Sequence record: OR352942.1
Direction: 5' to 3' (one strand)
Length of the DNA stretch: 64,000 nucleotides
Source: Escherichia phage AV112
Part shown: in pieces, positions 39,050 through 63,994 of the stretch
How positions within the stretch are numbered: position 1 is the first letter of the stretch
Layout: each line of letters starts with the position of its first letter
Notes under the pieces: generated by a model
What the model was told of the DNA's origin: nothing
The model's input: only the letters and a program-made list of their open reading frames with translations
The model's database searches: none
Program-made: the position numbers and the translations under genes

Positions 39050-40150
39050 TTACGCTGTGAAGATTTTATCCCACATCGCAACAACTGCATCTCGGTTATA
39101 CTTTTTCCATACTGCTTCAGCACGTTTAACTCGAGCTTCGTATGTGTCAGTGAATTCTAATACAGCTTTTGTGTAAAGCGCAACTACTTCTTTCTTAGGA
39201 GTAGAGGAATCAATTTCTACACGCACAGTATCTGGGTCGTATTCGAATGTCGCATGAGGATAATCCTTAAAAACTAACTGGATTACAGGGACACCTTTAG
39301 AGATGGCTTCAATAGAACTATTCTCTACTGTACCTGTGTCAGGACACGTATTAATAAGTGCTTTAGCTGTTTTAAGACGTTCCATGATTTCACTGTGTGG
39401 AGCATCAATAATAACAGGATATTTAGCTGGTGGTGCCCATTTACTAGGACAGTATCCTACACCATTTTCGCCTAGTGCTTTAATTGCTTCAAGAGCAACA
39501 TCGGTGCGGCGCATCTTAGTGTCATAACGTTGTGCACTAATAATCAGATCAGTCGCCGGAAGAACTTCAGGTTTCTCATTCAAACAAATAACCGGGTAAT
39601 CTTCGGCTTCAAACAACGGATTTGCTCGCCAATAATCATAATCAATTTTGTCAGTCAGAGCTGAAGTCATATGGCAATATTTACGTTCAAATTCACGGAA
39701 GGCTTTAGTAGGAGCATAACTCTTACCACCGTTCTTATGAATTTGAATAGTCTGGTCCCAAATTTGAACAATGCCACGAGATACCGGTTCAAATGGTGTT
39801 GCCATAAAATTCTTATGAACTTTAGAGAGACCTGCGTCTTTAATTGCCTGAACGGTTAGTTTAGTCGGTTCCATAGTAACAACAAAATCGTATTCATGGA
39901 TGCCGGCTAGTTCAACAATCTTACGAGCCATAGTATAACTCATACCTAGACTGAATTTAGTCAGATGACCAACAGGATGGTGTGTAACTTTCCAGTCACC
40001 AAACGTGTCATTATCAAAGCCGATATAATCAATATCAGCACCAATAGAAACTAAATATTTCAACACATTTAAATGTACTGCTTCAAGGCCACCTTGTACA
40101 CGGTCAGGATTAAATGGGACTGCACGAGATGGGATAAACATAACTTTCAT
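39050..40150 (-). CDS. GT-B fold glycosyltransferase (candidate DNA glycosyltransferase)
   Basis: 366 aa; C-terminal motif VENSSIEAISKGVPVIQ resembles GT4-type ExxxxxxxE / G-x-P-V signature and T4 a-gt LELGACGTIPVF. Confidence 0.55.
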   Translation of the reverse strand: MKVMFIPSRAVPFNPDRVQGGLEAVHLNVLKYLVSIGADIDYIGFDNDTFGDWKVTHHPVGHLTKFSLGMSYTMARKIVELAGIHEYDFVVTMEPTKLTVQAIKDAGLSKVHKNFMATPFEPVSRGIVQIWDQTIQIHKNGGKSYAPTKAFREFERKYCHMTSALTDKIDYDYWRANPLFEAEDYPVICLNEKPEVLPATDLIISAQRYDTKMRRTDVALEAIKALGENGVGYCPSKWAPPAKYPVIIDAPHSEIMERLKTAKALINTCPDTGTVENSSIEAISKGVPVIQLVFKDYPHATFEYDPDTVRVEIDSSTPKKEVVALYTKAVLEFTDTYEARVKRAEAVWKKYNRDAVVAMWDKIFTA

Positions 40151-51790: not shown

Positions 51791-52312
51791 TCAGTAACCA
51801 TTATCCTGGCGTTCAAAGTTGTGTTGGTTTTTCAAGTAGTAAAGTTTAAAGATTTCTTCAGCGGAAAGACCCAGACCTTGGAACATGTTCAGGACAAAGT
51901 GGAGGATATCAATCATCTCGAATTTAATTTCAAGCTGGTCTTCAGGAGACAGTTCATCGATACGACGATTTCGATATTCAGCATGTTGAGCTTTCCAAGG
52001 CTTCCATACAGAGCTAGCGGCTTTTTCACCATTGCTCATACCACCAAGTGAAGTCAACAGTTCACGGAATTCATCATCAATATAATCTTTCTGATTACGC
52101 AGCCAATCAACAACATCGCCAGCAGTGGCTAATTCATCAGGATGTTTGTTATGTTCAGGCTTGTCATTTGCCAGACGAACCTGTAAAGATTTCTGCATAT
52201 CAAGCATTACCTGCAGAGGGTCTTTATCTTCGTGAATCAGAGCATTAAAATAAGCTTCTTCTGCTTTATCAACACCAGAAATAAGTTGTGAACATTCGTT
52301 AAAGTGTGCCAT
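51791..52312 (-). CDS. 56: gp56 dCTPase/dUTPase (MazG-like)
   Basis: start at ATG 52312 (MAHFNEC) with SD; about 173 aa. Confidence 0.8.
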   Translation of the reverse strand: MAHFNECSQLISGVDKAEEAYFNALIHEDKDPLQVMLDMQKSLQVRLANDKPEHNKHPDELATAGDVVDWLRNQKDYIDDEFRELLTSLGGMSNGEKAASSVWKPWKAQHAEYRNRRIDELSPEDQLEIKFEMIDILHFVLNMFQGLGLSAEEIFKLYYLKNQHNFERQDNGY

Positions 52313-52402
52313 TATTTTTCCTTTCAATTCAGTATAAGAGAGTTTAATTCTAACATTAATTTTATAAAGCGTAATAAATAATAAGGTAACTAAGGAGATA
52401 TT

Positions 52403-58782: not shown

Positions 58783-59151
58783 TTAAAAGAATTTAAATTT
58801 TTTCTTGGTCCGTTCATTAAAAGCTTGTTGTACTTGCATTGTAACACATTTTTCAACATGCGGTGCAAGTTCTGCTTTTCTGTCCTGGTCAAGAACTGCA
58901 AAGTCCATTACGATTTTACCATCAACCCAGTCTAGTTTTGTAATATAGACTATATGATGAGAACCATCTTCAAGTGTAATCAGAATCTCTTGAATGACAT
59001 TTTCCATTGCTGAACGGATAATTTTAAGAGATTCATTAAACACTCGTTCTTTGCGAATGTCTTCCCCTTCCGAAGAAGGGGATTCATCAACGATTTCTAG
59101 ATTTAAATCATCGAGATTATTCATCGAAATCTTCCATTTCGTCAAGGTCAT
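58783..59151 (-). CDS. 40: probable gp40 head-vertex assembly protein
   Basis: about 113-122 aa between 41 and uvsX; synteny only. Confidence 0.45.
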   Translation of the reverse strand: MTLTKWKISMNNLDDLNLEIVDESPSSEGEDIRKERVFNESLKIIRSAMENVIQEILITLEDGSHHIVYITKLDWVDGKIVMDFAVLDQDRKAELAPHVEKCVTMQVQQAFNERTKKKFKFF

Positions 59152-60289
59152 TTTCTATATCTGCTGCAGACGGAGCATCAGAAGTTTTAACCGGAACTTT
59201 AGTTGTTGCTTTGCAATTAATAAGGTCGTTAACAGCGTCATCAACTTCTTTAATAGAAGAGATAGCACCTAGTTTATATTTAGTTTCAATTGCATCTCGG
59301 AAAGGTTTGTGTTTAAACAACGGTCCCCAGAATTCTACACAATCAGTAGCTTTAGCACGCCATGATTTTTCTTCACGAATCATTTCGCCTGTTTCTTCGT
59401 CAAGGAATTCACGAGCATACCACCCGGCTTTAGGCTTAACTACAAAACCAATTTCAGTTGCCATTTCTAACAAGCCACTGAACGGGTCGATACCACCATC
59501 AAAATTAACTGTGATTGGGAAAGTAGATTTTTCTTTAACGGTGCGAGATTTTTCTGCTTTCAACGTGAAGTCATAACCGGTCAATTCTGTACCTTCTTTA
59601 ACCTGACGTTTAGAGATAAAGAATACAGTGTTAGCAGAGTAAAGAATACCTGTACCACCACCCATAATCTCTTTAGGATACAATCCGCCGATTTCCATTG
59701 CTGTATGGTTAATTGCAACACACGGAATATCTTTAATAGTCAGATAAGGAGTCACAATGCGGAACAGAGATTTAAGTGCCTTAGCACGAGACATATCACC
59801 TACAACTTTCTCGTTCAATGCATCTTCGGTTTCTTTCTTAGATGCAGTATTACCGATTGAATCGATAAAGATAATAACTTTATCACCGCGTTCAATCGCG
59901 TCAAGCTGATTAGTCATATCAACTTTAAGTTGTTCGACAGATTGAATCGGAGTATGAACTACACGGTCTAAATCAACACCCATTGAACGAAAATAAGATT
60001 CTGAAGCACCAAATTCTGAATCATAGAACAAACAAATTGCATCTTTATATTTCTTCATATATGCTGCAACCATGGTCAGTCCAAACAACGTTTTAAAGTG
60101 TTTAGAAGGAGCAGCAAAAATAGTTAAGCCTGATTGCAACCCAGCATTCAGTGCACCACCTAATGCAATATTCAACATCGGAATACGAGTAGGGACTTCA
60201 TCACGATTATTAAACAGCTTAGACTTAGTCAAGTCTGCAGTCATTTTAGAAGTAGAAGCTTTAATCAGACGAGATTTTAAATCAGACAT
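59117..60289 (-). CDS. uvsX: UvsX recombinase (RecA-like)
   Basis: 390 aa; near-colinear with T4 UvsX; acidic C-terminus. Confidence 0.92.
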   Translation of the reverse strand: MSDLKSRLIKASTSKMTADLTKSKLFNNRDEVPTRIPMLNIALGGALNAGLQSGLTIFAAPSKHFKTLFGLTMVAAYMKKYKDAICLFYDSEFGASESYFRSMGVDLDRVVHTPIQSVEQLKVDMTNQLDAIERGDKVIIFIDSIGNTASKKETEDALNEKVVGDMSRAKALKSLFRIVTPYLTIKDIPCVAINHTAMEIGGLYPKEIMGGGTGILYSANTVFFISKRQVKEGTELTGYDFTLKAEKSRTVKEKSTFPITVNFDGGIDPFSGLLEMATEIGFVVKPKAGWYAREFLDEETGEMIREEKSWRAKATDCVEFWGPLFKHKPFRDAIETKYKLGAISSIKEVDDAVNDLINCKATTKVPVKTSDAPSAADIENDLDEMEDFDE

Positions 60290-60388
60290 TGTATTTTTCC
60301 ATAGGCATCATTATATTTTACTCATGTTTAAAAGATAAGACGATTATATACTAAGGGTTATACAGCATTTAAAACTTTAAACAGGCTC

Positions 60389-60937
60389 TTAACGAGCCCA
60401 TTTGATAATTTCTGTAATCAAATTATTACGTTCGCTTGCATTAAATCCTATAACTTTGTTAGCACCATCATGATTAAGTAATTGATACGTTTGGATTTTG
60501 TTATGAATTGCAAACTCTTCAAAATATGAAATGACTGTATTAAAACCGAATGAAGACAAAGTAATAAGGTCGTCTTCAAAACTTTCAGTCATTTCGTTAC
60601 GTGTTAAAATAATTGTGAACACATCATGGTTTTGGCAAAGACGAACATAATCCTGTTCATAAACGTCAAGAACCGAGTCCACATCTTGTCGAATACGTCC
60701 ATAAACCCAGTTACTAATATATCCACGGTCTAACAGATAAATCTTAGTAGGGTCTAAATAATTCAACATCGTTTCGAAACAGCCAACTTCATTTCGAGAT
60801 TTAACATCGAAACGTCCATCAACTGTTCGTTTAGGGAAATCAATCTTTACATATCTTTCACTAATTTCCATTATGTCATTAATGAAAGTTGTTTTACCAG
60901 CATTATCCGGGCCATCTACTAAAATAATTTTAGCCAT
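60389..60937 (-). CDS. P-loop nucleoside/nucleotide kinase (thymidylate-kinase-like)
   Basis: Walker A ILVDGPDNAGKTT; LLDRGYISNWVYG resembles TMK/dNK DRY-type motif; 182 aa. Confidence 0.55.
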   Translation of the reverse strand: MAKIILVDGPDNAGKTTFINDIMEISERYVKIDFPKRTVDGRFDVKSRNEVGCFETMLNYLDPTKIYLLDRGYISNWVYGRIRQDVDSVLDVYEQDYVRLCQNHDVFTIILTRNEMTESFEDDLITLSSFGFNTVISYFEEFAIHNKIQTYQLLNHDGANKVIGFNASERNNLITEIIKWAR

Positions 60938-60938
60938 T

Positions 60939-61838
60939 TTATTCCTCGATTACGACATCTTCATATTTAGGTATATTATACGGTGAAGAAATTAAAGCAT
61001 TAAAGTAGATGAACTCACCAAGACCTGGATGGAATACTTCTTCAGGATTTTCGAAATATTGAATCTTCGGTCTTCCTTTAAGAATTTGATAGTACTCAGT
61101 TTTAGTTGGTTTAAAAATTCGAATCAGTGCTTCTTCAGGATACTTATTTCTGTCGAAGCTACTATTTGGATCGGTTATATAAAGCGGTTGACCTAATTGA
61201 ATTGCACATTCAACCACTTGTTCAAAACGATAACACGGGTCACTAATTCGAAATGGATGAAAAATACCATCTAGATGAATAGGAGCCAAATCACCTACAA
61301 GACGCTGCATGATGGAAGGACGTATAACTTTCTGGGTTACGATAATCTTATTACCATCTGCACCTGCGTTAACCAGCACTTCTTTTTGACGTTCATTCAA
61401 CACAGTAGTTTGAAGTGAACGATTAACCGACAACATGTCGGTTTTTAAGAATTCGTCAATGTAAAAACGTGGTTTATTAGGGTCTGCAGTGATATTGAAA
61501 TTGAATTCTACATCAAAAGCGCCGTCATATCCAGTGATATCTGTGATTAGAAAATCACAATCATAATAAGCAATTAATGAATCAACCACAAATTCATTTT
61601 CAGACCAGAAATATTTACGAGTGTTATACGCGTTATCTTTATACCATAATGGAACAAACTTAAATTCTGGGAAAAGACGTTCGCATTCTTTAATATCAGA
61701 TGCATTACGTGGATATGTAATCACATCACCCGGATTAGCACGGTGCAAATGAAGTTGGAAGTTGCCATCCTTAAGGATAGCATACTGTCCAGTTTCATAA
61801 GACCGCATACTCAAGATAGGTACGCGGAAAATAGCCAT
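60939..61838 (-). CDS. hypothetical protein (299 aa), translationally coupled in 42-like operon
   Basis: start overlaps stop of 42-like gene by 1 nt; stop 1 nt from kinase start; no motif recognised. Confidence 0.5.
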   Translation of the reverse strand: MAIFRVPILSMRSYETGQYAILKDGNFQLHLHRANPGDVITYPRNASDIKECERLFPEFKFVPLWYKDNAYNTRKYFWSENEFVVDSLIAYYDCDFLITDITGYDGAFDVEFNFNITADPNKPRFYIDEFLKTDMLSVNRSLQTTVLNERQKEVLVNAGADGNKIIVTQKVIRPSIMQRLVGDLAPIHLDGIFHPFRISDPCYRFEQVVECAIQLGQPLYITDPNSSFDRNKYPEEALIRIFKPTKTEYYQILKGRPKIQYFENPEEVFHPGLGEFIYFNALISSPYNIPKYEDVVIEE

Positions 61839-62554
61839 TAGTCAAGAAATCCTTTAACATAATCAAAATCACGTTCAAACACATGGGCACTTACCATGGT
61901 ATGAGTATAATCACCAACTTCTACACCACATTCGTTAGCGATATAATGAAGTAATTTTCCTTGGAGATAAAAATCCAACTGCATAACAACAGCACAGTTC
62001 TGAGAACGCATATGACAGTGGGTATAAAGCTTACCATCACGAATATAATAAGTCACTGAGTCGGTACATGGATATTCAAGTGTTTCGTCTGAATCAAGCA
62101 AAGCCTGATCAGAACTTTCTAGAATTTGGAACACAACTCTTCGAGAGTTAGGTTTTTCTTTAAGTTCTTTTAGAAGAGTTGGTAACTGGGCCGCAATGCG
62201 AGGACCATAGAAAGTGTTGAAGTTCGCAGGCAAAGCATCTGATTTTGGTTTAGAAATAAATTTAGCGACGTTAGGATATGCCTTAAATGCTTCTTCTGCA
62301 TCAGTACCACCAGAAATCATAAATTTCCAGAAATCTTCAGCATATTCATAAGAGATGCGATTAATACGTGGGTCGGTCATTTTGAATGATGAAGGGGTAT
62401 CAACAACTACTGTCATAGACCCAATTTCATTACAACGTCCAATACGAGAATCAGTTACGAATTCCGGGTTTTCTAAAATTTCACGATTGACGGCTTTAAA
62501 TGCGGATTGAAAATCTGCGGCTTTAATATATTTCATTGTGTTATGTTTTCCCAT
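61838..62554 (-). CDS. 42: dCMP-hydroxymethylase-like enzyme (thymidylate synthase fold), divergent from T4 gp42
   Basis: TS-family core SRRVVFQ...YPCTDSVTYYIRDGKLYTHCHMRSQNCAVVMQLDF with catalytic Cys; Asp aligned with gp42 cytosine-specifying Asp. Confidence 0.6.
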   Translation of the reverse strand: MGKHNTMKYIKAADFQSAFKAVNREILENPEFVTDSRIGRCNEIGSMTVVVDTPSSFKMTDPRINRISYEYAEDFWKFMISGGTDAEEAFKAYPNVAKFISKPKSDALPANFNTFYGPRIAAQLPTLLKELKEKPNSRRVVFQILESSDQALLDSDETLEYPCTDSVTYYIRDGKLYTHCHMRSQNCAVVMQLDFYLQGKLLHYIANECGVEVGDYTHTMVSAHVFERDFDYVKGFLD

Positions 62555-62595
62555 GTTTACCTCAATACAGTTATTATATACTCAATTCATAAAGC

Positions 62596-62837
62596 TTATT
62601 TGAATTTCTTAGCGATGTTGATATAACGTAGAGCTTCGGCATCGATACTTCCAAGGACGCTATGAAGGAACGCGTCGACATAGTATTCTAGTTGAACATG
62701 TTCTCTTTAATCACTTTAGCCGCTTTAGTTTCAAACAGGCCCATAAGGGCCTTTTTAAGAATTTGTTCGTTGTTGTTAATTTTAATAGTCAAAATCTCTT
62801 CGTTAAGTTGGTGGTTAAAAGTTTTTCTAGAAATCAT
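62596..62837 (-). pseudogene. small ORF apparently interrupted by a frameshift (49 aa + 31-aa continuation in another frame)
   Basis: ATG 62837 overlaps stop of upstream gene; TAG at 62688; different frame reads on to TAA 62596 with no ATG. Confidence 0.3.
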
Positions 62838-63994
62838 TCTGGGTACCTCAAAGCGTCATCAGAGTTAGTTATATCAATAATAGATATAGAGTTTTCCGAT
62901 AACCCATTTTTAGATAACTGACGTTTATAATATCTTTCACAATATGTACACGTCGTCCCACAGATTTCATTAGCACAATCGAAATCTGGATGTTTGAACC
63001 ACCTTTTTTCTAAAAAGCCATCTAACAAAGAGGTTTCAATATTTACCGTATGTGAAAACTCAGTCTCATTTTCAAGAGTGAAAATGGTCTCTAAAGGCTT
63101 CCACAATTCCAACAAATTACCTTCAAATTTTTCAGAAGCATAAGCTTCAAGAACTTTCAAAATGTAGTCTGTGCTACCTGTACGTCCTGAAACTTTGAAT
63201 TGAGTGATACCAATATCATTATAAAGTTTCAAATCTTGAGGACGAACAAAACGAGTTCTCAACCAGTTAAATGGATCTGTATCACGAGCTTTAATACAGT
63301 GCTGCATTGGATATCCATTTAAGGATTTGGCATCATCTACTGTAACATCAGTGCTATGGAAAATATAGCAAGAGTCACGATAACTACAATGTGTTGTATA
63401 CCCTTTACCAGCATTAGAACAGAACTCATTTACAAGAACTTCAAATATTATATTGTTCTTATTACAAAACTCTGCTGCACGCTTCAGGAAAGAAACTGAA
63501 CGGTTCTTATGAATTCCACAGCAGACCTTTTTGATATTATATTGGTCATGCAAGTATTTGATTTGAGTTACAGCATCGACATGTAGAATTGTTGAAACTT
63601 CAATCTCAATGTCTTTATTGACTTCACGAACAATTTCCATAACAACAGGGTTAGCGATAGTAATACGCCAAACGCCTATTGACCAAAGATACTGAACATA
63701 ATCCTGAATAGCTTTCTTCTTCCACTCAACTAGTTCTCTTTTTGAACCAGGATTTATCGTGTTGAGTGTATAGTTAAAGCAAATACCTAATTCGTTACAA
63801 CGTTTAACGTAATCTTCTAACATCTTTTTGTCAACGTCAGGAAGCCTAAAATCAGGTCTGGCTGCTACAAAAGCCATTTCTCTTGTAGAGCCGTATACTT
63901 CGTTTATCAAGCTATTAGGATAAGTTTTATTGAGCTCTACGATTTTATCAAGAAGAGCTAAATCAAAATTCGTTCCGATTTTAAAGGTATTCAT
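62834..63994 (-). CDS. Cys-rich hypothetical protein (386 aa), possible Fe-S enzyme
   Basis: Cys clusters CCGIHK, EFCSNAGKGYTTHCSYRDSC, C-terminal CANEICGTTCTYC (contains C-x3-C-x-Y-C). Confidence 0.5.
   Translation of the reverse strand: MNTFKIGTNFDLALLDKIVELNKTYPNSLINEVYGSTREMAFVAARPDFRLPDVDKKMLEDYVKRCNELGICFNYTLNTINPGSKRELVEWKKKAIQDYVQYLWSIGVWRITIANPVVMEIVREVNKDIEIEVSTILHVDAVTQIKYLHDQYNIKKVCCGIHKNRSVSFLKRAAEFCNKNNIIFEVLVNEFCSNAGKGYTTHCSYRDSCYIFHSTDVTVDDAKSLNGYPMQHCIKARDTDPFNWLRTRFVRPQDLKLYNDIGITQFKVSGRTGSTDYILKVLEAYASEKFEGNLLELWKPLETIFTLENETEFSHTVNIETSLLDGFLEKRWFKHPDFDCANEICGTTCTYCERYYKRQLSKNGLSENSISIIDITNSDDALRYPE

Follow-up and report, generated by a model that had tools for sequence, protein, structure and literature searches.

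Gene content of the locus

We analysed a block of genes next to uvsX in a 64,000-nucleotide (nt) stretch of Escherichia phage AV112 (sequence record OR352942.1; the whole stretch is called the window here), where a sequence-only reading had proposed a self-contained pathway for a modified pyrimidine, different from the glucosylated 5-hydroxymethylcytosine (hmC) route of phage T4. Our analysis assigns the block, very probably, to a Mosigvirus gene cluster of the RB69/HY126 type, of which it forms the half nearer to uvsX and by which all cytosine of the virion DNA is exchanged for arabinosylated 5-hydroxycytosine (5hoC), and singles out one member of it, a 386-amino-acid (aa) protein of the U32 family, as a candidate for an oxygen-independent pyrimidine hydroxylase. 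The five coupled open reading frames (ORFs) reported next to uvsX were all present on the minus strand (Table 1), with an ATGA overlap between the U32 gene and the 49-aa ORF, a TAATG overlap between the thymidylate synthase-like gene and the 299-aa ORF, and 1 nt between the stop codon of the latter and the ATG of the kinase gene, as that reading had described.

Across its 3.7 kb, the interval was 100% identical to the record of Escherichia phage AV113 (OR352943.1; Straboviridae, Mosigvirus, RB69 group), and 95–99% identical to 151 other phage records, with 97.9% DNA sequence identity to phage HY126; both the Mosigvirus classification and the genes lying beyond the window end were read from the AV113 record. 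The gene order corresponds one to one to RB69 gp45–gp50 (ORFs 045–050), and the RB69 and HY126 proteins that were compared share 98–99% identity with their window counterparts. We found essentially nothing that speaks against this assignment. RB69 DNA contains mono- and di-arabinosylated 5hoC, not the arabinosyl-hmC that was held in 2018, and gp45–gp55 form its modification cluster (PMC13326640); the same modification has been confirmed in the Mosigvirus phage NP (PMC13390438). The gene set is already known, since it matches RB69 gp45–gp50 and the HY126 genes described in 2025–2026, and is not the new combination that had been suspected, although the broader proposal of a cytosine hypermodification distinct from the T4 route was borne out; a divergent beta-glucosyltransferase (beta-gt) accompanied by standard glucosyl-hmC is not what the analysis found. 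Nor are the four principal genes self-contained, because sugar activation, the second transferase and the deoxycytidine triphosphatase (dCTPase) are encoded elsewhere: a phosphatase, a bifunctional sugar kinase/nucleotidyltransferase (uridylyltransferase) and an arabinose-5-phosphate isomerase lie just beyond the window end, whereas a transferase near-identical to the 'phage HY126 glycosyltransferase' (PDB 9iqz/9ir0) and the dCTPase, whose orthologue gp56 has a listed role in the pathway (PMC13326640, Table 1), are found at other positions in the window.

At the equivalent position, T4 has the order uvsX-segA-beta-gt-42. The gene 42 homologue was confirmed to be far more divergent than its flanks, with 25% identity to T4 gp42 compared with 68% for uvsX, 86% for gp41 and 74% for gp61. 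The base composition of the interval was not anomalous relative to its flanks and gave no trace of recent foreign origin. Arabinosylated 5hoC makes phage DNA resistant to restriction enzymes and to the nucleases of CRISPR systems, as established for RB69, HY126 and relatives, and the window adds one more member to this group; what remains of interest is mainly the U32 protein and, to a lesser extent, the kinase and the question of whether the first arabinosylation precedes or follows replication.

Table 1 Positions of the module genes, their neighbour uvsX and two further pathway genes in the window.
Feature	Position	Strand	Basis
U32-family Fe–S-type protein, 386 aa, 13 Cys; RB69 gp50 orthologue	62834..63994	minus	Pfam, predicted fold, residues
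gp49 N-terminal fragment, 49 aa	62688..62837	minus	PHROG 8601
gp49 C-terminal remainder, other frame	62596..62700	minus	DNA alignment with RB69
5-Hydroxy-dCMP synthase, ThyA/gp42 homologue, 238 aa; RB69 gp48 orthologue	61838..62554	minus	Pfam, PDB identity, signature residues
GT-B fold glycosyltransferase, 299 aa; RB69 gp46:47 orthologue	60939..61838	minus	Fold, RB69 identity
TMK-like P-loop nucleotide kinase, 182 aa; RB69 gp45 orthologue	60389..60937	minus	PHROG 761, profile search
uvsX	59117..60289	neighbour of the minus-strand module	ORF list
The pathway's second glycosyltransferase; orthologue of RB69 gp3, not in the interval	39050..40150	minus	98.6% identical to RB69p003
dCTPase, gp56 orthologue, outside the interval	51791..52327	minus	97% identical to RB69p028

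An oxygen-dependent dCMP hydroxylase

The 238-aa protein had been taken for a deoxycytidine monophosphate (dCMP) hydroxymethylase. Judged by its D169N signature, its ~99% identity to the HY126 enzyme and the activity of its RB69 orthologue, it is instead a dCMP 5-hydroxylase that depends on flavin mononucleotide (FMN) and O2 (a 5-hydroxy-dCMP (5hodCMP) synthase). It matched the Pfam family Thymidylat_synt (PF00303) at 1.9e-15 and differed at 3 of 238 residues from the HY126 protein in PDB entries 9iqc, 9ir2 and 9iqu. In Escherichia coli ThyA numbering, it combines the catalytic C146 with L143E, D169N and N177D, the motif MRSQNCAVVMQLD supplying N at 169 and D at 177 and the motif LEYPC supplying E at 143; D169N together with N177D and L143E/D is the diagnostic combination for 5hodCMP synthases (PMC13326640). 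T4 gp42 keeps Asp169, whereas the window protein has N169 and only 25% identity to gp42. RB69 gp48 converts dCMP to 5hodCMP with oxygen taken from 18O2 and binds FMN (PMC13326640), and O2-dependent conversion with bound flavin has also been shown for the HY126 enzyme, which was crystallised with flavin (PMC13326640; PDB 9iqc). A divergent hydroxymethylase, making 5-hydroxymethyl-dCMP that is then processed to a novel hmC derivative, would agree with the ThyA-family membership, with the position equivalent to T4 gene 42 and with the 2018 view of RB69 DNA as arabinosyl-hmC (PMC6024577), but this explanation is already contradicted and retains hardly any probability: the Asp169 of T4 gp42 is replaced here by the very residue that marks 5hodCMP synthases, the near-identical HY126 enzyme carries flavin in its crystals, and nuclear magnetic resonance and mass spectrometry of RB69 and phage NP DNA show the sugar bound through O5, without a methylene group (PMC13326640, PMC13390438).

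A U32-family protein as a candidate anaerobic hydroxylase

The 386-aa protein at the far end of the block matched Pfam Peptidase_U32 (PF01136) at 6.3e-11 (42.4 bits against a gathering cut-off of 22.4), and its AlphaFold2 model (predicted local distance difference test score, 90.8) had another U32 protein, 5d88, as its best fold match in the PDB (E = 1.8e-7). A sequence search of the PDB gave no match; the NCBIfam search gave a UbiU match so weak (19 bits) that we do not consider the protein a UbiU orthologue. Every U32 protein of assigned function takes part in an O2-independent hydroxylation that requires prephenate and iron–sulfur (Fe–S) clusters (RlhA, ho5C2501 of 23S ribosomal RNA (rRNA); TrhP, ho5U34 of transfer RNA (tRNA); UbiU/UbiV, ubiquinone), with prephenate as the oxygen donor for UbiU/V (PMC5727448, PMC6599085, PMC10990095). 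No protease catalytic features were found in the phage protein, in which the conserved features are instead cysteines of the Fe–S type: 10 Cys were invariant across 36 homologues (46–85% identical), including C233 and a CX4CX3CX2C motif at 340–352. When aligned with four E. coli paralogues (17–21% identical), E185 and C192 coincided with E162 and C170 of TrhP, which are essential there, and C203 and C209 with canonical cysteines of the family; the phage protein is shorter than RlhA and TrhP and has a differently built C-terminus. In the RB69 work, gp50 appears solely as a table entry ('sugar or heterocycle reductase'), with its U32 kinship to RNA hydroxylation factors unremarked, and the known RNA pyrimidine hydroxylation pathways are said to use no 5hodCMP synthase homologue (PMC13326640). 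A literature search for phage U32 proteins or chorismate mutases tied to DNA modification found nothing, within a coverage that did not extend to He et al. 2026 and Mahler et al. 2025.

Our reading of the U32 protein, to which we give a probability of roughly 45%, is that it may be a viral hydroxylase of pyrimidine C5 that depends on prephenate but not on O2 and has DNA precursors, or DNA, as its substrate. In most genera it would be paired with an adjacent phage chorismate mutase; it would be the anaerobic counterpart to the O2/FMN-dependent 5hodCMP synthase encoded in the same operon, and its wider clade would mark undescribed anaerobic DNA hypermodification pathways. Because the known hydroxylase needs O2 and the hosts grow anaerobically, an anaerobic, prephenate-dependent route to 5hoC is the simplest reading. 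Such a pairing of aerobic and anaerobic enzymes would parallel those of UbiI/H/F with UbiU/V and of TrhO with TrhP.

The distribution of the protein among phages bears on this proposal. A tblastn search located the U32 protein in 221 phage records, with identities of 80% or more throughout, and the named hosts among them were all Enterobacterales or Shewanella; the hydroxylase was detected in 373 phage records, and none of the 57 Acinetobacter or 20 Rhizobium phage records among these carried U32. Outside Mosigvirus, the neighbour of the U32 gene was almost always an intact type II chorismate mutase, above the Pfam gathering threshold and with six of six active-site residues of the E. coli enzyme (R11, R28, K39, E52, S84 and Q88) invariant. 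The two genes occurred in three arrangements (U32 followed by the mutase in Entb_45, EcS1 and LC53; the mutase followed by U32 in the metagenomic T4-like contig L021; and the pair relocated together behind the kinase in Thanatos-2). The mutase was present in 56 records, compared with 68 U32 carriers that were not Mosigvirus-like, and all of these mutase records came from U32-carrying genera except one unclassified faecal phage contig. A phage-encoded mutase would fit a stoichiometric demand, which we infer to correspond to ~6 × 10^4 cytosines per genome (37.7% GC, 168-kb genome). Of the five comparisons in which the U32 protein was present, four showed it as the best-conserved module protein, and in the fifth, Entb_45, it came a close second to uvsX; in the same phages its identity was 80–87%, compared with 48–68% for the glycosyltransferase and 44–72% for the kinase, and it exceeded gp41 in all three phages in which gp41 was compared.

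These distributions also bear on a different role, in which the U32 protein would act on the sugar side of the pathway (it has been labelled 'sugar or heterocycle reductase' and 'UDP-arabinose biosynthesis') or as a protease, with no connection to hydroxylation. Such labels stand in Table 1 of PMC13326640 and in some GenBank records, the U32 gene has the sugar-activation genes on one side and the hydroxylase gene on the other, and other members of its clade lie near an epimerase and glycosyltransferases. However, the Dhakavirus phage JS98 (L007 2476-7589) lacks U32 and the mutase, as well as the arabinose-5-phosphate isomerase of the SIS type, while retaining the hydroxylase, the glycosyltransferase, the phosphatase, the bifunctional enzyme and a kinase that is only 38% identical and has moved upstream of the hydroxylase gene. 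Because JS98 and the DLP3-type Acinetobacter phages have arabinosylation genes without U32, making and transferring arabinose does not require the protein; a sugar-side or protease role would, moreover, leave the neighbouring genes for chorismate mutase and, on one contig described below, 3-deoxy-D-arabino-heptulosonate 7-phosphate (DAHP) synthase unexplained, and the absence of protease features alongside conserved Fe–S-type cysteines speaks against proteolysis. We consider this alternative distinctly unlikely.

Homologues of the U32 protein at 48–58% identity were found only on uncultured phage-like contigs, where the neighbouring genes encode dCMP deaminase, thymidylate kinase (TMK)-like kinases (one of them 33% identical to the window kinase), uracil-DNA glycosylase, deoxynucleoside kinase (dNK), the nucleotidase NT5C, radical-SAM/SPASM proteins, DNA polymerase III alpha, a TAGT-type DNA glycosyltransferase, dUTPase and UDP-galactopyranose mutase; several clade members had no ThyA-type enzyme within 7 kb. 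On one contig (L016 8145-8891), the U32 gene is directly followed by a gene for a Bacillus-type DAHP synthase, which scored 237 bits as DAHP synthase compared with 63 as 3-deoxy-D-manno-octulosonate 8-phosphate (KDO8P) synthase. Chorismate and prephenate derive from the shikimate pathway, whose first reaction is that of DAHP synthase. These neighbourhoods place the clade, as far as gene content can tell, in deoxynucleotide and DNA-modification contexts rather than RNA ones. A recurrent module was also observed (contigs L013, L017, L018, L022-L025, L014-L016 and L019), in which genes for a TMK-like kinase, a radical-SAM/SPASM protein and a ~327-aa protein without assignment precede U32 beside DNA polymerase III alpha, with variants that include dCMP deaminase, or a TAGT glycosyltransferase together with UDP-galactopyranose mutase; such modules may represent undescribed DNA hypermodification pathways. 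A 334-aa neighbour of U32 on contig L019 was considered as a ThyA homologue and rejected, having no similarity and no family match.

The same contexts bear on the possibility that the U32 protein hydroxylates RNA, as TrhP and RlhA do, with tRNA or rRNA of the host or the phage as its target in infected cells, and resides in a DNA-modification cluster by linkage alone. RNAs are the only characterised nucleic-acid substrates of the U32 family, and T4-like phages depend on and encode tRNAs. This explanation seems improbable to us, however, given the low identity of the protein to the E. coli paralogues, its shorter length and different C-terminus relative to RlhA and TrhP, and the recurrence of its clade beside genes for dCMP deaminase, TMK-like kinases, dNK, NT5C, dUTPase and DNA polymerase; a phage mutase, too, suits a demand on the scale of the genome's cytosines but poorly suits trace RNA modification.

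Several observations weigh against assigning prephenate-dependent DNA hydroxylation to the U32 protein. Its correlation with host type rests on few independent lineages; Dhakavirus coliphages get by without it; and Mosigvirus phages, including the one in the window, have no chorismate mutase but only gp49, which is unrelated to the mutase. The phage clade has Gly198 where the essential C177 of TrhP and C176 of UbiU stand, although C233 and other invariant cysteines could stand in for the missing motif Cys, as happens in UbiU/UbiV. Direct hydroxylation in vitro has not yet been demonstrated for any U32 protein (PMC5727448, PMC6599085, PMC10990095).

If the U32 protein does act as an anaerobic C5 hydroxylase, its presence would explain how gut coliphages modify their DNA completely without oxygen, and a DNA-related substrate would be known for the first time in the U32 'peptidase' family. 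The protein would also offer a small, soluble and highly conserved protein for the in vitro reconstitution of prephenate-dependent hydroxylation, so far unachieved for any member of the family, and a pointer to uncharted hypermodification systems in phages of anaerobes.

The glycosyltransferase, the kinase and the timing of arabinosylation

The 299-aa protein, left as an unknown by the sequence-only reading, is a GT-B glycosyltransferase by fold, with two Rossmann-like domains and structural similarity to GT-B enzymes, and is predicted to be the first 5hoC arabinosyltransferase. It is 98% identical to RB69 gp47 and gp46 taken together, which are a single gene (gp46:47) split in the RB69 record by a sequencing error (PMC13326640). 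Searches of Pfam, NCBIfam and PDB sequences gave no match, and the best BLASTP E-value against T4 beta-gt was 3.7, with no detectable similarity; the earlier statement that no beta-gt-like ORF is present thus stands for sequence but not for fold. Comparison with the TAGT-type glycosyltransferase of contig L019 likewise showed no sequence similarity. The role of first arabinosyltransferase has so far only been proposed, for RB69 gp46:47 and for DLP3 gp79; individual transferases did not act on 5hoC-DNA in vitro, and the authors leave undecided whether the first arabinosylation takes place on the nucleotide or on DNA (PMC13326640).

The 182-aa protein matched PHROG 761 ('thymidylate kinase') at 7e-45, and a profile built from 11 of its homologues matched YorR (2axp) at 1.8e-8 and several thymidylate kinases at ~1e-6. 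The P-loop residues G9, D11, G14 and K15 and the DR motif (D70/R71) were invariant among homologues. Because its score against the dTMP kinase model TIGR00041 (16.8 bits) falls below the equivalog cut-off of 83, we describe it as TMK-like rather than as a bona fide Tmk; it is probably a dedicated kinase for a modified pyrimidine deoxynucleoside monophosphate (dNMP).

The kinase raises the question of when the first sugar is added. The coupled triad of hydroxylase, 299-aa glycosyltransferase and TMK-like kinase might work before replication, such that 5hodCMP is arabinosylated as a mononucleotide and the TMK-like kinase phosphorylates a bulky product that the gp1 kinase cannot handle. The triad is translationally coupled here and conserved in further genera of the Straboviridae as well as in Rhizobium phage RL38J1, and single transferases show no activity on 5hoC-DNA; with 5hodCMP already served by the gp1-type kinase (PMC13326640), the TMK-like kinase has no evident function of its own. 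Against this stand the post-replicative glycosylation of the T4 paradigm and the addition of later arabinoses to DNA (PMC13326640); the polymerase would, moreover, have to accept a dCTP bearing a C5-O-arabinosyl group. We regard a pre-replicative triad as unlikely.

The split gp49 gene and intergenic features

Upstream of the hydroxylase gene, the 49-aa ORF matched PHROG 8601 at 7.5e-26 over profile positions 1–46 of 79, and RB69 gp49 is an intact protein of 79 aa. The coupling of the 386-aa protein through this small ORF was seen as described, with the refinement that the ORF is a truncated allele of gp49: in a DNA alignment, a 2-nt insertion at ~62703-62706 splits the gene (window TTAAAGAGAAC, RB69 TTAA--AGAAC), and the C-terminal 33 residues run on in the other frame to 62596, with a translation ending in ...VQLEYYVDAFLHSVLGSIDAEALRYINIAKKFK before the stop codon that matches the RB69 gp49 C-terminus. 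Several other Mosigvirus genomes (RPN187, HY126, JS09, phi25-307, TU01 and AV118) are split in this way too, and most Mosigvirus genomes have an intact gene; the split looks like a natural polymorphism, suggesting that the gene may be dispensable or decaying.

We considered and rejected a frameshifted chorismate mutase with the 49-aa ORF as its N-terminal half: the ORF belongs to PHROG 8601 and not to the chorismate mutase PHROG 10027, it has no Pfam match, its hhalign probability against chorismate mutases was 0.1%, and Yersinia phage phiR1-RT has both genes. In the latter phage (L012 5049-5523) the gp49-like and mutase genes lie side by side. The chorismate mutases of EcS1 and Serratia phage LC53 (L005, L006 5884-6228) have 114 aa and an N-terminal extension (MRRINHMMNE...) like the gp49 N-terminus (KINHKLNEE / TFNHQLNEE). 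This gene arrangement and sequence resemblance suggest that gp49 may be an accessory partner of the U32/mutase pair.

A promoter and terminator scan showed no enrichment above shuffled sequences. By eye, TATATAAT was seen in both the intergenic region upstream of the hydroxylase gene (62555-62600) and that upstream of uvsX (60290-60388), with AGCTTTA or TGCTGTA 10–11 nt upstream; the two elements resemble T4 MotA-box middle promoters in their sequence and were not flagged by the generic sigma-70 scan. A gene for a segB-like homing endonuclease lies between the phosphatase and U32 genes in Serratia phage LC53 (L006 4078-4716) and Yersinia phage phiR1-RT (L012 3207-3845); this insertion is missing from the window genome, and T4 has segA between uvsX and beta-gt.

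The proposed pathway and its relation to known systems

Taken together, the genes are consistent with the following pathway. The gp56 dCTPase would supply dCMP and exclude dCTP, the 238-aa ThyA homologue would hydroxylate dCMP at C5 with flavin and O2, and a gp1-type dNMP kinase, which takes part in the pathway and acts in vitro (PMC13326640), would with host enzymes convert the product to 5-hydroxy-dCTP for polymerisation into DNA, each of these steps having been shown for orthologues. On the basis of fold and synteny, the 299-aa GT-B enzyme would attach the first arabinofuranose (Araf) from UDP-Araf to the 5-hydroxyl group and the gp3-type transferase would put on the second arabinose; UDP-Araf would come from the arabinose-5-phosphate isomerase, the bifunctional kinase/uridylyltransferase and the phosphatase encoded beyond the window end, and the TMK-like kinase would probably phosphorylate a modified pyrimidine dNMP. 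The U32 protein, in our proposal, would sustain 5hoC synthesis as an O2-independent, prephenate-dependent C5 hydroxylase when the O2-requiring enzyme cannot work.

The closest known system is the RB69 gp45–gp55/HY126 'Afh' pathway for arabinosyl-5-hydroxycytosine (Lee et al. NAR 2026, PMC13326640), which has the same genes in the same order as the window; the solved structures of the HY126 hydroxylase and second glycosyltransferase are of proteins near-identical to those of the window, and we find no substantive difference between the two systems. The T4 glucosyl-hmC system occupies the same genome position, between uvsX and gene 43, and follows the same logic, from a dCTPase through a ThyA-family enzyme acting on dCMP, a kinase and polymerisation to a GT-B transferase; it differs in using folate-dependent hydroxymethylation rather than flavin- and O2-dependent hydroxylation and glucose rather than arabinofuranose, and its gp42 has 25% identity, and its beta-gt no sequence similarity, to the corresponding window proteins. 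The glycosyl-5-hydroxycytosine clusters of Acinetobacter phage DLP3 and Rhizobium phage RL38J1 share the core of hydroxylase, glycosyltransferase and TMK-like kinase but have neither U32 nor chorismate mutase, and differ in their sugars and in the number of transferases.

For the U32 protein itself, the nearest relatives of assigned function are RlhA, TrhP and UbiU/V, with which it shares the U32 domain, a TIM-barrel-like fold, the Glu and three of the four motif Cys positions, and a genetic association with prephenate supply; the target of RlhA is, moreover, the same atom, C5 of cytosine. The phage proteins differ from them in forming a separate clade, with Gly at the second motif Cys and an additional invariant C-terminal CX4CX3CX2C motif, in having none of the C-terminal extensions of RlhA and TrhP, and in their position in deoxynucleotide and DNA contexts.

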